A stretch of 64,000 nucleotides of DNA from an uncultured Gammaproteobacteria bacterium (GCA_964413735.1 CAYPSS010000001.1:140679-204678), one strand, 5' to 3'. Shown: positions 8,593-13,574, numbered from the stretch's first letter. Numbers and translations: made by a program. The notes: generated by a model from the sequence alone, not told the origin.

Positions 8593-8646
8593 AATTCATT
8601 ATAAAAGAAAAAAACAAGACCTTGTCCTGTTTTTGAATTAAAGAAA

Positions 8647-9159
8647 TTAAGATTGTTGTAGTTTCCTGATAATGGGTTGAACCGCCGGATGCTTTGATTT
8701 CTTGGTCGGACTTTGGATCAATAATGTTTCTTGCCAGTAATTGTCCATTGACGTAGTTCGGCTATAGGTGGCCACTTCTTGTGTATCGGTATAATAAATA
8801 AAGGTTCTTAAATCACTCTTGTGAAACCAGCTAATATTTTCTGGACAATGAAGAATAACGATTTTGGCAATTTCAACTTCGCCATCGCGACTTTGTGGTT
8901 TTTGGCAAATTGAAATTACGGCAAAATATTGAGTATCTTTTTCTTTGAGAAAAGGAAAACAAATTCCAAGTTCATGCCATTGATTAAAAAATCCAATGTC
9001 CATCGGAGTAAAGTTTAGATACCATTGAGCCGTTAATTTTTTCACTTCATCTTGATTCAGACCAAGAGCGGAAAAAATCCAACCGACTTTTTCAAATAAA
9101 CATTTGAGAATAGCATTTTGATGAATTTTCTTCCTAATTAATTTGACGGTATCTGCCAT
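8647..9159 (-). CDS. hypothetical protein, paralog family A (170 aa)
   Basis: shares motifs with 9250..9759 product (GLNQ(D/E)EVK.L..QWY, ATYSRT, GKHP.VQ); own TTGACA-N17-TAAGAT promoter and SD gtcggagga. Confidence 0.55.
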   Translation of the reverse strand: MADTVKLIRKKIHQNAILKCLFEKVGWIFSALGLNQDEVKKLTAQWYLNFTPMDIGFFNQWHELGICFPFLKEKDTQYFAVISICQKPQSRDGEVEIAKIVILHCPENISWFHKSDLRTFIYYTDTQEVATYSRTTSMDNYWQETLLIQSPTKKSKHPAVQPIIRKLQQS

Positions 9160-9249
9160 TATTCCTCCGACATTTTTAATGCGTAGTTATCTTAACAAAA
9201 TCGTAACTCTTGTCAAATAAAAAAACAAGACATTGTCTTGTTTGTAGTA

Positions 9250-9759
9250 TTAGGCTTTTTGTAATTGGGCAATCAGATGTTGAACTCCCGGATGTTTTCC
9301 CTTGTTATTCGGATTTTGGATTAACAATAATTCTTCGCTGGAATTATCCTTAAGTACAGTCCGACTGTATGTAGCTACTGTTTGAGTATTCACATAGTTA
9401 ATGAAAGCGTTTAAATCTCCATTTTTAAACCAATCATCATTAGGTGTCTGGATAACAATGATTTTGGTTATTTCGACTTTTTCACTAGGGTCACGGGTTT
9501 CCTCGGAGTAGGAAACTACGACATAATAGTGAATATCAGCTTGGAGAAAAATTGGAAAGCAAACGGCAAATTCAGAGATGCGATTCCAAGAATCAGTAGT
9601 ATTTCGGGCAAATTCTATATACCATTGATTAACCAAACTTTTAACTTCTTCTTGATTGAGACCAAGAATTTTAAAGATCCAAGCGGCTTTTTCAGAGATA
9701 AATCTTAAAACCGTTTTTTGTACTGTTTGTTCATAGAGGAGTTTGATTTTTCTTTCCAT
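9250..9759 (-). CDS. hypothetical protein, paralog family A (about 169 aa; start moved to MERKIK after SD gaggtga)
   Basis: paralog of 8647..9159; promoter atttgacaaaaaatattcccctgctaagatg; track ORF begins 30 nt earlier. Confidence 0.55.
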   Translation of the reverse strand: MERKIKLLYEQTVQKTVLRFISEKAAWIFKILGLNQEEVKSLVNQWYIEFARNTTDSWNRISEFAVCFPIFLQADIHYYVVVSYSEETRDPSEKVEITKIIVIQTPNDDWFKNGDLNAFINYVNTQTVATYSRTVLKDNSSEELLLIQNPNNKGKHPGVQHLIAQLQKA

Positions 9760-9862
9760 TATCACCTCAGATTTTGAATGCGTAAGCATCTTAGCAGGGG
9801 AATATTTTTTGTCAAATAAAAAGAAGCGGTTTGAAGGCCGCTTCTTTGCGTAAAAATAAGCA

Positions 9863-11506
9863 TTACATCATGCTACCCATACCACCCATCCCCGGCATAC
9901 CACCACCATGGTTATGATCATTATCTTCTTTTGGTTCATCGGTAATAACACATTCAGTGGTTAGTAACATGGCAGAAATTGAAGCGGCATTTTGTAGGGC
10001 GGAACGAGTAACTTTGGTGGGATCAATAATACCAGCAACCAATAAATCTTCATAGGTATCTTTGGCGGCATTATACCCGACATTCCCTTTGGCTTTCTTC
10101 ACTTCTTCGGCAATTACCGCACCGTCTTTACCGGCATTAATGGCAATTTGTTTTATGGGTTCTACTAAGGCTTTGCGTAAAATTTCTACCCCCATTTTTT
10201 CTTCTTGATCAACAATTTCCAGATTTTCCAAAGCTTGGGAGGCGCGAACTAAGGCAACACCACCACCGGGAACAATTCCTTCGGCAATCGCCGCTTTGGT
10301 GGCATGAACAGCATCTTCGACTCGTAGTTTTTTTTCTTTCATTTCCGTTTCTGTGGCTGCACCAATTTTAATCACCGCTACACCACCGGATAATTTAGCT
10401 AAGCGTTCTTGTAATTTTTCTTTGTCAAAGTCAGAAGTTGATAAATCCATTTCTTTTTTGATTTGAGCCACTCGCGATTCTATTTCTGATTTTTCACCTT
10501 GTCCCTCAACAATGGTGGTGTTTTCTTTGGTAGCTACCACTTTCCCGGCTTGACCAAGCATATTCAAAGTAACATTTTCCAATTTCAATCCAACTTCTTC
10601 GGAAATAACTTTTCCGCCGGTTAAAACCGCAATGTCTTTTAACATTTCTTTGCGACGATCACCAAAGGCCGGCGCTTTAATGGCTAAAGTATTGAAGATT
10701 CCGCGTAGTTTGTTTACCACTAAAGTGGCTAAAGCTTCACCATCAATATCTTCGGCAATAATCACCAATTCCTTTTTGCCGGTTTCCGCTAATTTTTCCA
10801 GGGTGGGAACAATTTCAGAGACAGAAGAAATTTTTTTATCAGTAATTAAAATATGAGCATTTTTGTATTCCGCTTCCATGCGCTCCGCATTGGTGACCAT
10901 GTAATGAGAAACATAGCCTTTATCAAATTGCATGCCTTTGACCACTTCTTTTTCAATGCCAAATGATTGTGATTCTTCTACGGTAATCACTCCTTCTTTG
11001 CCCACTTCTTCAATGGCCTCGGCAATAATGCGACCGATTTCTGGATCATTGGCTGAAATGGAGGCAACTTGAGCAATTTCTTCCTTGTTATCAATTGGCT
11101 TAGATACCTTGTTATGTAGTTCGTCAATTACCACGTTAACCGCTTTTTCAATTCCGCGTTTCACTACCATGGGGTTAGCGCCGGCAGCTACCACTTTCAA
11201 ACCCTCGTTAATCATGGCTTGAGCTAATAAGGTGGCAGTGGTTGTCCCATCACCGGCTACATCATTGGTTTTGGTGGCTACTTCTTTAACCAGTTCAGCC
11301 CCAACATTTTCAAATTTATCTTTTAATTCAATATCTTTGGCAATTGTTACACCATCATTGGTAATAGTCGGAGAACCAAAACCACGATCCAAAACCACAT
11401 TTCGTCCCTTGGGACCCAAAGTTACTTTTACCGCGTTGGCTAATTGGTCAACCCCGCGTTTGAGCGCTTGTCGCGCTTTTTCATCGAAAATTATTTGTTT
11501 TGCCAT
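9863..11506 (-). CDS. groEL: chaperonin GroEL (Hsp60)
   Basis: 547 aa; canonical GroEL sequence with C-terminal GGM repeat ([14 protein letters not shown]). Confidence 0.95.
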
Positions 11507-11605
11507 AAGTTTTTATTGATAAAAATAGTTAATTAATTTTAATAATAAATTTAATAGTTTTTAATTATCTACACCCCCTATTTTCTAATCCCAAATCCCT
11601 AATTT

Positions 11606-11893: not shown

Positions 11894-11956
11894 ATTTAGA
11901 ACAACGAATTAACGGATGATTACAAATCAATGCTTGATTGGTAATGCCGCCATTCG

Positions 11957-11983
11957 TTAGCAGTTAAGTGTTTAGAGTGCTAA
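11957..11983. promoter_or_regulatory. CIRCE-like inverted repeat (ttagcagtt-N9-gagtgctaa), HrcA operator upstream of groES-groEL
   Basis: 7/9 + 9/9 match to TTAGCACTC-N9-GAGTGCTAA; located just downstream of a TTGACA-N16-TACAAT promoter on the minus strand. Confidence 0.7.
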
Positions 11984-12091
11984 ATTCTATACTATATTGT
12001 ATTAGATTTTTATCATATGTCAAGAGCGCTTGTCAAATGTATTTTTATAATAAATTAATGAAAAAACAGGACTTTGCCCTGTTTTGAAATA

Positions 12092-12625
12092 TTATTTTCT
12101 TTTATCTGCCAATGTACAAATAACTTGCATTCCCGTTATGATTATTTGCTTTAGACTTTGGACATAGGCACTATGATTGTATTTGCCCGTCTGAGGATTA
12201 ATTGCTTTTTTGATAGCGAGTAAATATAGACTTCGTACATCAAGAGAGCATAGCATTACCACTATTTCACGCATACTTAGAGTCATTGTTTTCGGATCAA
12301 AAGATGTACTCGATTGCTGAAAACGATGAGGCATCATGTTGGTTAAGGTTTCAACGTATTTATTGTAAGCGGTGTGATTGAAATTACCGTTTTTTGTTGC
12401 CAAATTAATACCGGCCATCATCAAAAATTGTAGCGGAGTTTCTAGGTAAAGGTTTCGAGCTGAATCTATCGTAATCCCTTGCGCTAAAATTTTTAATCCT
12501 TGTTCTGTTGCCCGATCTCGTTGGTTGAATGCTTGTTGATTGGCAAATGTTTGAATAAATCGACAGCCATAACGAGGATGTTGAGAGTCAAGGTATTCGT
12601 AAACAACATAATAAGGATTTGCCAT
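12092..12625 (-). CDS. hypothetical protein, paralog family B (about 177 aa; start at MANPYY after SD aaaggag)
   Basis: aligns with 12714..13241 product (YxVV(Y/F)EY(L/I)D..S..RGCRFI, LLAI(K/E)K(A/S)I(N/D)P(Q/D)TG); track N-terminus overlaps its own promoter. Confidence 0.55.
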   Translation of the reverse strand: MANPYYVVYEYLDSQHPRYGCRFIQTFANQQAFNQRDRATEQGLKILAQGITIDSARNLYLETPLQFLMMAGINLATKNGNFNHTAYNKYVETLTNMMPHRFQQSSTSFDPKTMTLSMREIVVMLCSLDVRSLYLLAIKKAINPQTGKYNHSAYVQSLKQIIITGMQVICTLADKRK

Positions 12626-12713
12626 GGCATCTCCTTTTGAAAGGACGTTTAAATTTATCATAATAATAAATTATTGTCAATCAAAAAAAACAGGACTTTA
12701 TCCTGTTTATTAA

Positions 12714-13241
12714 TTAAAATTCTTCTTCTGAACAGCCAAAAAATGATTTTATGCAAGTATTGATATTTCGATTATAGGCCACGTCATTAAATTCTCCGGT
12801 ATCCGGATCAATGGATTTTTCAATCGCCAGTAATACCAAACCTCTGCCATTGTCGTTCTTTTGACGAAGCGCAAGAATTTCATTTTCAGTAACTCTCATC
12901 TTGGGGTTGTGAAAAAGTTTTTGACTTTCAATAAAGCGTCGCATGAAAATCTGACGCATAAATTCAACTTTCATTTTGTAAAGTTCAAAACTGAAATTTT
13001 CTCCGTAAGTGGCATCGCCTACACAAGAACGCATCAAGCATTCCAGAGGAACTTCATTGCAGAGTTTCTGAGCCTCTGCTTCAGAAATTCCTTGAGCAAT
13101 TACTTTAATGATTCCATTCTCTTCTGATGTTTCTCGAGAATCAAAAGCTGTTTTATCGGCATAGTTGATAATAAAGCGACAGCCACGATAATCGCTTTTT
13201 GGATCAATGTATTCAAAAACAACAGAGTATTCATTTCCCAT
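12714..13241 (-). CDS. hypothetical protein, paralog family B (about 175 aa; start at MGNEYS after SD aaggaggg)
   Basis: paralog of 12092..12625; promoter TTGACA-N17-TATTAT upstream. Confidence 0.55.
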   Translation of the reverse strand: MGNEYSVVFEYIDPKSDYRGCRFIINYADKTAFDSRETSEENGIIKVIAQGISEAEAQKLCNEVPLECLMRSCVGDATYGENFSFELYKMKVEFMRQIFMRRFIESQKLFHNPKMRVTENEILALRQKNDNGRGLVLLAIEKSIDPDTGEFNDVAYNRNINTCIKSFFGCSEEEF

Positions 13242-13574
13242 TATTGCCCTCCTTGGGGTGAGAAAAAAAGAATACATTACATAATATCAATAGCAGTACG
13301 TTTTGTCAATTGTTTAGAAAAATAAAAAACAGGACGTTGTCCTGTTTGAAGTTAATCACTGAAAATCATTTCAAGAGTTTGAATGGTTAAATTTGACACA
13401 CCTGATTTTTGTAATTGGTCGCGTTTGCGGGCTAGATCAACAATTGGTTGGCAATTGAATTCTCCAGCGGATTTGTTTCTTCGGTGTTGATGATAAATGA
13501 TTAGCTGGCGTAAATATGCTTGTAGCATTTTCTTTTGTTTTTTCGTACAAAGGAAATAAATTATGAGCATTTTG

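Follow-up and report, generated by a model that had tools for sequence, protein, structure and literature searches.

A recurrent predicted terminator stem behind tandem orphan genes of an uncultured bacterium, and its probable copying by gene duplication

Background

Intrinsic (Rho-independent) terminators take the form of short, G+C-containing stem-loops that stand, together with a U tract, directly after stop codons, and the stems of such terminators are normally idiosyncratic. The subject of this report is a 64-kb stretch of DNA deposited as part of an uncultured Gammaproteobacteria bacterium (GCA_964413735.1, CAYPSS010000001.1:140679-204678), referred to below as the window, in which hairpins of this architecture differ from the usual case in having one stem at seven sites, among three unrelated gene families. 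The initial annotation of the window drew attention to this palindrome and offered as possible causes recombination at the palindromes, a small dispersed repeat or a DNA site recognised by some factor. It appears to us likely that the recurrence is explained mainly by the duplication of each terminator together with its gene, followed by drift under the constraint of RNA structure; that the sharing between families came about through re-use of an existing promoter and terminator "chassis" is a suggestion made with low confidence.

The hairpins invite comparison with several described groups of intergenic palindromes. Integron attC sites are imperfect palindromes of 57-141 nt with R''-L''/L'-R' boxes, and they belong to promoterless cassettes and an intI integrase. 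DNA uptake sequences and uptake signal sequences (DUS and USS) are present in hundreds to thousands of copies, most of which are single and some of which lie inside genes. Pairs of DUS form Rho-independent terminators in Neisseria (PMC2397512), and the window resembles that system in carrying a short inverted repeat inside terminators and in encoding RecA and type IV pilus-type genes; it differs in that its half-sites are at background frequency and are paired only in the seven terminators. Repetitive extragenic palindromic (REP) sequences, bacterial interspersed mosaic elements (BIMEs) and other stem-loop families (Cozzuto et al. 2008, PMC2267715) are likewise repeated intergenic stem-loops, often at the 3' ends of genes and possibly active at the RNA level. 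The hairpins of the window differ from these in the size of the repeated unit (~21-27 nt), in having no head tetranucleotide and no BIME-like arrays, in that no REP-associated tyrosine transposase (RAYT) was seen, and in that the copies follow gene duplication instead of independent insertion. A further likeness is to bidirectional terminators, inasmuch as the A tract allows the hairpin to serve either strand where genes converge (8615 and 40591).

Recurrence and RNA-level features of the hairpins

The exact pattern CARGACNNNGTCYTG occurs at 8615, 9226, 13330, 39631 and 40591, against 0.00 copies expected from 100 shuffles of the window, and a looser search that included the flanking A/T and allowed at most two mismatches returned seven sites (8615, 9226, 12066, 12690, 13330, 39630 and 40590) against 0.31 expected. 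With 0 to 0.3 copies expected, the seven copies reported in the initial annotation are real, and the coordinates given there agree with ours to within a few bases. On the sense strand all seven have in common an A tract, CARGRY, AAN, GTCYTG(K) and T5-8, and each lies 15-35 nt beyond the stop codon of a gene on the same strand. Six of them stand 3' of the tandem orphan paralogs A1/A2, B1/B2 and D1/D2, for which the earlier statement that the hairpin always follows paralogs holds; it fails for the seventh (13327-13347, designated T0), which is found after a Wzy-type gene and a small open reading frame (ORF), upstream of B2. The positions and stems of these and other features of the window are collected in Table 1.

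By their position, strand asymmetry and T tail, the seven palindromes are predicted to be intrinsic terminators that act as RNA, which agrees with their earlier designation as a recurring terminator family; the family is non-random. Each of the hairpins has 9-11 pairs, a 3-nt loop and a T5-8 tail, with folding energies of -7.8 to -10.8 kcal/mol that are within the range of ~25 other terminators in the window, and 7/7 window copies have a sense-strand loop of AAN. Three of the window stems are imperfect, and in every case the flaw is a G.U wobble on the sense strand that becomes an A.C mismatch on the opposite strand. Thus the A1 hairpin, with its G.U pair on the minus strand and A.C mismatch on the plus strand, folds with -9.3 kcal/mol in the sense and -5.4 in the antisense direction, the B1 hairpin, with one sense-strand G.U pair, with -10.5 and -7.4, respectively, and the B2 hairpin has a U.G closing pair on its sense strand. 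When 11 distinct hairpin copies from the window and related strains were aligned, the sense strand had 99.0% of its stem cells paired, 8 of them as G.U, and showed one covarying G-C/A-U pair; on the reverse complement 90.9% pair and there are 9 mismatches.

Copies of the hairpins are retained in related strains, for which five short contigs (L119, L120, L121, L122 and L123) were available. The A1 orthologues in L119, L120 and L121 read CAAGAC-AAN-GTCTTG, the A2 hairpin is unchanged in L120, that of B1 is kept in L119 and L123, that of B2 has an AAC loop in both of these contigs, and T0 is identical in them. At the two convergent sites, the A1 hairpin (8610-8634) also faces a 371-amino-acid gene at 7477-8592(+), and rpsA, which is served by a separate hairpin at 40627-40642, converges on the D2 hairpin. 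The small ORF that precedes T0 (13352-13660, minus strand) is 102 amino acids long in the window and is called as 87 amino acids in L119; it takes up the 225 nt that separate the stop codon of the Wzy gene from T0, and may be a gene, a remnant or a 3' untranslated region (UTR).

A palindrome ahead of a promoter might alternatively be a DNA operator or activator site for the next module, and in three cases (the A1, B1 and B2 promoters) the centre of the palindrome does lie 17-28 nt upstream of TTGACA. We nonetheless hold this to be very improbable, because the distance from the hairpin to the next -35 box is variable (about 17, 18, 28, 51 and 148 nt, i.e., a range of 17 to about 148 nt), because the copies at 8615 and 40591 face convergent genes and have no downstream promoter, and because GroEL's unrelated terminator holds the same place before the A2 promoter. 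The strand-asymmetric wobble points to RNA here too, and it likewise disfavours the proposed DNA site for a factor. There were no matches to Rfam covariance models at gathering thresholds across the whole window, no tRNA-linked elements were found, and our literature searches found no paper on intrinsic terminators in Patescibacteria.

Probable co-duplication of terminators and genes

For comparisons between stems we used a core of the six positions adjoining the loop and scored the purine/pyrimidine pattern. All seven within-family terminator pairs (7/7) show 6/6 purine/pyrimidine identity in this core, and a hand count from the stems gives about 14 transitions and 1 transversion among the within-family differences (P about 0.005-0.014 at a lineage transition fraction of 0.6-0.7). 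The A1 stem of the window, CAGGAC/GTCTTG with its G.U pair, is an intermediate between the A type of L119, L120 and L121 (CAAGAC/GTCTTG) and the B type (CAGGAC/GTCCTG). We propose that each terminator would have been copied along with its gene in the tandem duplications that yielded A1/A2, B1/B2 and D1/D2, and that selection for RNA pairing would from then on have permitted almost only transitions, via G.U intermediates. Protein identity dropped to 25-42% in the meantime, and the stems would have stayed recognisable because pairing in the RNA steers change into the G.U pathway.

An all-against-all comparison of the window's proteins brought to light two additional tandem orphan families, F (46356, 46957 and 47513) and G (52463 and 53204), in which the terminators again resemble one another within the family and are built on other stems; those of F differ by paired transitions only. 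The keeping of a family's own terminator stem is thus a general habit of this genome, in which F and G behave alike. Two adjacent small genes, at 17289 and 17704, have the stems AGCCGCT and GGCCACT and may be a further case of paralogs. Nothing relevant to the co-duplication of terminators with paralogs was found in the literature.

Sharing of the stem between unrelated families

The same comparison extends across families. Every one of the 18 pairs formed between the families A, B, T0 and D agrees in at least 4/6 core bases and has 6/6 purine/pyrimidine identity. Among the 381 remaining cross-family pairs of the window, only 3 show 6/6 in the latter measure; a single bidirectional hairpin that was counted twice accounts for one of these, and another links adjacent genes that are possibly paralogs. 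In a simple occupancy simulation, a clique of this kind arises by chance with a probability of 0.002-0.03 if there are three independent lineages and below 0.001 if there are four. The occurrence of one stem in the unrelated A, B/T0 and D is probably not chance, and convergence within a narrow terminator grammar is possible because the same 15-mer forms terminators in unrelated genomes. The earlier claim that one terminator is re-used across unrelated families is borne out by the likeness of the 18/18 pairs, given that the proteins are unrelated.

The genes concerned are true orphans, and the initial view of A, B and D as lineage-specific, monocistronic promoter-coding sequence (CDS)-terminator modules is sustained. 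Three homologues of A1 were found among 5.8 billion proteins, and a profile search of 1.84 billion representatives with D1/D2 returned only D1, D2 and weak matches to the zinc-finger motif. No blastp match was obtained between the A, B and D proteins, and there was no convincing fold match for the models of A or B. A phage origin of the modules was rejected; the viral contigs searched contained no relatives of A, B or D, and PHROG and PADLOC gave no families above noise.

It is unlikely, in our estimation, that the stem is merely the preferred terminator of this genome or the product of convergence, in which case a narrow grammar (A tract, stem of 6-9 bp, AAN loop and T tract) and transition drift would suffice, with no transfer or homogenisation. 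The architecture and the A-rich loops are common to most of the ~32 terminators of the window, several of the others, at 16517, 30611, 52433 and 53175, open with (A)ACAG...CTGT(T), the 15-mer CAAGACAATGTCTTG or its complement appears in terminator-like form near recA or ftsK in metagenome-assembled genomes (MAGs) labelled Saccharibacteria or Campbellbacteria, and the chance probability is as high as 0.002-0.03 if only A, B+T0 and D are independent. On the other hand, about 25 other terminators in the window have unrelated stems, the few other cross-family pairs with the same purine/pyrimidine pattern include two doubtful ones, and the 112 single matches in 596 Gb, ~3x a rough uniform-composition estimate of about 35, are not what one would see of a universal optimum.

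Sightings of the stem outside the window include the identical 15-mer CAAGACATTGTCTTG, which four related Patescibacteria contigs (L075 at 5279, L102 at 4669, L126 at 3379 and L148 at 5504) carry at an orthologous intergenic position ahead of ftsK and a fifth, L105, carries at 3129, ~100 nt after recA; core genes of other lineages are thus served by this stem as well. A Mycoplasmoidaceae MAG (L014, CP185406) has AAAAAAACAGGACATTGTCCTGTTTTTT at 942-956 and 2908-2922, 2 kb apart and with similar flanks; in this unrelated, AT-rich genome a terminator with the same stem may have been duplicated independently. Within the window a plain count, made without a significance test, puts the family stem on about 6/20 orphan-gene terminators vs 1/11 core-gene terminators. 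This enrichment next to accessory genes is confounded by tandem duplication and shrinks when duplicates are collapsed to single lineages. Similarly, the observation that housekeeping genes use other hairpins is accurate for GroEL, PyrBI, RpsA, ClpP, GyrA, FtsH, PilB and RNase Y; it is not distinctive, as ~14 other orphan genes do so as well.

With low confidence, we suggest that the sharing of the stem between families reflects the re-use of an existing non-coding terminator and promoter chassis as recombination places or exchanges new orphan genes. The suggestion comes from the D1/D2 flanks, which are 98-100% identical around CDSs that are 25% identical, and from the mosaic structure of the A locus among strains, both of which are described below.

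A number of points weigh against co-duplication with constrained drift and against the extension of that reading across families. The sample was limited to the window and five short contigs from related strains; both actual termination and the history of duplication are inferred; the stems are short, with 3-4 G-C pairs each; and the transition-only pattern is significant only modestly, given that the lineage transition fraction is already 0.6-0.7, such that it is supportive but not overwhelming. Across families, the flanks show no similarity beyond the A and T tracts, and the same 15-mer is a terminator in unrelated genomes, e.g., after recA in the Saccharibacteria-labelled MAG L105. Common descent of the families themselves is opposed by an hhalign probability of 0.3% for A vs B and by the different topologies of the AlphaFold (AF2) models of A and B (predicted local distance difference test score, pLDDT, about 72).

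Promoters and the homogenised flanks of the D pair

The modules had been described as sharing near-consensus promoters of the form TTGACA-N17-TAAGAT. Such promoters, with spacers of 16-17 nt, are indeed present at A1, A2, D1 and D2 and are lacking at B1 and B2, and two orphan genes with other terminators have them too, so that promoter type is uncoupled from terminator type. More broadly, TTGACA-N16/17-TANNNT is found at 24 sites in the window vs 1.9 expected, 22 of which read TTGACAA, before core and orphan genes alike; TTGACA(A) is the general promoter -35 element of this genome. In the tandem arrays the T tract of one terminator meets the -35 box (TTGACAA) of the next module with a gap of at most 6 nt.

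The strongest similarity between modules is seen in the D pair, for which the upstream intergenic regions are 98% identical over 199 nt, from the preceding T tract to the start codon, and the hairpin and T tail are identical over 23 nt (39631-39653 and 40591-40613), around proteins that are 25% identical. A1 and A2 agree at 73% of 52 nt of promoter and 5' UTR, and B1 and B2 have no obvious similarity outside of the hairpin. The proposal that the modules were homogenised is therefore upheld for the non-coding flanks of D1 and D2 around their diverged CDSs and not for those of A and B, which have diverged roughly in step with the genes. In these respects the window bears comparison with loci that undergo concerted evolution or are cassette-like: the D flanks are conserved around a variable CDS, and A1 alleles are swapped between otherwise identical strains. 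It differs from such loci in the absence of a dedicated recombinase or attC-like site and in that strong homogenisation is confined to the D pair.

The 199-nt repeat itself holds a hairpin in the 5' UTR, TCCGCCCAGAGCGGA, and, ~60 nt ahead of the -35 box, an imperfect inverted repeat, ACTCAGACTCTGAAC-AA-GTTCAGAGTGAG. No Rfam match was obtained for the repeat, and a structured RNA within it was rejected on a folding z-score of 0.13.

Related strains and recombination at the A locus

Homologues of A1 and B1 led to four related-strain contigs; none of the other fetched loci shows synteny with the window. L119 matches the window at 100% identity over 7459-8620 and at 98-100% beyond about 10057. The identity drops to 78-90% over A1 and the 3' end of groEL, and A2 is missing from this contig. 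Between the window and L119, A1 has a synonymous divergence (dS) of 0.37, a ratio of nonsynonymous to synonymous divergence (dN/dS) of 0.23 and 85% amino-acid identity, which show A1 to be a real and constrained gene whose divergence reflects an allele imported by recombination. The window and L120 carry the A2 module, and L119, L121 and L122 lack it. The segment present or absent is in register; its ends fall midway through the A2 and A1 promoter spacers, such that its absence leaves a correctly spaced hybrid promoter, and its left junction adjoins the unrelated hairpin of GroEL. The A locus (8621-10050 vs L119 9895-10560, L120 and L121) is thus a recombination mosaic.

These junctions bear on how modules have moved. 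In line with the earlier view of the modules as units, at least one of them, A2, is present or absent as a unit among the strains. The initial annotation had asked whether module boundaries coincide with the palindrome; since the A2 junctions are inside promoter spacers, the boundaries lie in the promoters instead, and recombination at the palindromes, one of the mechanisms put forward, is not supported by the same junctions, the left one being beside GroEL's unrelated terminator. The sole coincidence, in a single case, is the 3' edge of the divergent patch in L119, which is at the hairpin loop (8621), with 100% identity beyond it; a 21-nt stretch that is conserved in all strains would favour crossover there anyway.

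Half-sites, scattered matches and the search for a recognition element

If the stem were a sequence-specific recognition element, such as an uptake signal, a RAYT-type REP, a recombination site or an RNA hairpin bound by a co-regulating protein, its presence behind unrelated gene families would be accounted for directly. Further points in its favour are the DUS pairs that form terminators in Neisseria, the encoding of RecA and a PilB-type ATPase in the window, the end of the divergent A1 patch of L119 in the hairpin loop, and the stem of the A1 alleles, which is more conserved than synonymous sites (1 change vs a dS of 0.2-0.45). Such an element is nevertheless improbable. Isolated half-sites are not enriched in the 64 kb (with 13 occurrences CAGGAC/GTCCTG has rank 1404 among 2072 hexamers, and CAAGAC/GTCTTG, with 24, has rank 817), and 7-9-mer extensions of the half-sites in the window are nearly all inside the hairpins. 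Nothing is shared beyond about 25 nt, there is no terminal inverted repeat (TIR), target-site duplication (TSD) or GTAG head, the A2 junctions are in promoter spacers, one of them next to a different terminator, and the A.C mismatches that stand opposite the sense-strand G.U pairs argue against a site in duplex DNA. An RNA-binding factor is a possible, though improbable, rival.

Scans of larger collections argue in the same direction, as no other genome or virus was found with multiple copies. Matches were single and scattered, with 6 in viral contigs, 112 in 185,579 species genomes (unrelated taxa) and 31 in metagenomes. The species genomes scanned contained no locus with several exact full-pattern matches, nor did the other collections yield one apart from the related-strain contigs; L014 has two looser copies.

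Particular candidates were rejected individually. A DNA uptake signal was discarded on the background frequency of the half-sites in the window and the lack of a lineage-wide dialect in the 185,579 species genomes (the 31 metagenome matches being single), and the Neisseria precedent (PMC2397512) is not applicable because half-sites are at background and only single, scattered matches exist elsewhere. The suggestion of a small dispersed repeat or mobile element was given up, since the A and T tracts mark the limit of similarity, half-sites show no enrichment, and the scans returned no other multi-copy genome and only single, scattered matches. A miniature inverted-repeat transposable element (MITE) or Correia-like element would be at least 100 bp long with TIR and TSD, as opposed to a repeat unit of 21-27 nt. 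The hairpins are not integron attC sites, as they are perfect and 21-25 nt long, the modules have near-consensus promoters of their own and no integrase is found in the window. REP palindromes are imperfect, 20-40 nt long, headed by a conserved GTAG-like tetranucleotide and dispersed in many, often paired copies, with a cognate RAYT gene in the genome; they were dismissed for want of a conserved head tetranucleotide and because copies are found only after duplicated modules. Pfam annotation of 60 ORFs in the window revealed no transposase and no integrase, and no RAYT (Y1 HUH transposase) is among them.

One further possibility, which we rate as improbable, has two forms: either the hairpin and the T-tract/-35 junction bound orphan cassettes that are swapped by homologous recombination in a reduced, Patescibacteria-like genome, or the 3' hairpin tags the post-transcriptional regulon of one RNA-binding protein. 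In the first form, recombination, possibly after natural transformation, would use conserved non-coding "handles" to swap, add or delete fast-diverging orphan genes, with the promoter/terminator chassis staying uniform.

Gene content of the window and other features

The G+C content is 33-39% across the window. Its genes include those for TsaD/TsaE, a PilB-type ATPase, YchF, GroES/GroEL, Wzy, YidC, NusA, S6, SSB and RecA, as well as FtsK, ClpP, VanW, Hsp20, HU, YmdB, RNase Y, S1, GyrA, RbfA, a Mur ligase and FtsH, a set that is typical of a reduced bacterium of the Patescibacteria, or candidate phyla radiation (CPR)-like, kind. In size and position, the two long ORFs at 54139-61535 resemble RpoB and RpoC. 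Among the fetched loci the nearest relatives of RecA and FtsK are 53-69% identical and come from Saccharibacteria- and Campbellbacteria-labelled MAGs, and ~1/3 of the window genes have no Pfam family.

Two observations concern neighbouring genes. At 37088-38728 a single ORF of 546 amino acids combines the OTCace_N and OTCace domains (aspartate carbamoyltransferase catalytic) with a PyrI regulatory domain, and it looks like a PyrB-PyrI fusion. Upstream of groES, at ~11949-11975 on the minus strand, there is an inverted repeat, TTAGCACTC-N9-AACTGCTAA, similar to the controlling inverted repeat of chaperone expression (CIRCE), which sits between a TTGACA-N16-TACAAT promoter and groES and is kept in L119.

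Table 1. Positions in the window of the orphan genes, predicted terminators, promoters and repeats discussed in the text
Feature	Coordinates	Strand	Remarks
A1 terminator	8610..8634	-	AAAAACAGGAC-AAG-GTCTTGTTTTT, then T tail
Orphan gene A1	8647..9159	-	170 amino acids
A1 promoter	9189..9216	-	TTGACA-N16-TAAGAT
A2 terminator	9223..9243	-	AAACAAGAC-AAT-GTCTTGTTT; adjoins -35 box of A1 promoter
Orphan gene A2	9250..9759	-	169 amino acids; 42% identical to A1
A2 promoter	9788..9815	-	TTGACA-N16-TAAGAT; GroEL's own, different terminator (9820-9847) directly before
B1 terminator	12063..12085	-	AAAACAGGGC-AAA-GTCCTGTTTT; upstream of groES promoter and CIRCE-like element
Orphan gene B1	12092..12625	-	177 amino acids; one homologue cluster; no family matches
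B2 terminator	12688..12708	-	AAACAGGAT-AAA-GTCCTGTTT; adjoins B1 promoter
Orphan gene B2	12714..13241	-	175 amino acids; 35-37% identical to B1
T0 terminator (after Wzy-type gene and small ORF)	13327..13347	-	AAACAGGAC-AAC-GTCCTGTTT; upstream of B2 promoter
Wzy-type gene	13575-14921	-	Upstream of small ORF and T0
D1 upstream region	38753..38951	+	199-nt repeat, copy 1, from T tract of pyrBI terminator; TTGACA-N16-TAAGAT at 38892-38919
Orphan gene D1	38963..39616	+	217 amino acids; N-terminal C2H2-like CxxC...HxxxC motif
D1 terminator	39627..39649	+	AGGCCAAGAC-AAT-GTCTTGGTTT, then T tail
D2 upstream region	39647..39845	+	199-nt repeat, copy 2, from T tract of D1 family hairpin
Orphan gene D2	39859..40563	+	234 amino acids; 25-26% identical to D1
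D2 terminator	40587..40609	+	AAATCAAGAC-AAT-GTCTTGGTTT, then T tail
Family F terminators	46332-46349, 46933-46950, 47487-47508	-	Stems GCAGATC / ACGGATC / GCGGATT; paired transitions only
Family G terminators	52433-52453, 53175-53199	-	Common stem CAGTCGAT

Implications

The hairpin family offers a clean worked example of terminators that would travel with duplicated genes in a very compact genome, and terminator stems could mark old duplications after the similarity between the proteins has faded. If the re-use of a promoter and terminator chassis is true, it bears on how orphan genes come to be installed and exchanged in bacteria of the candidate phyla radiation. The wider context, with many monocistronic orphan modules that have near-consensus promoters, a locus that is a presence/absence mosaic among strains and flanks that have been homogenised, is more interesting than the hairpin.

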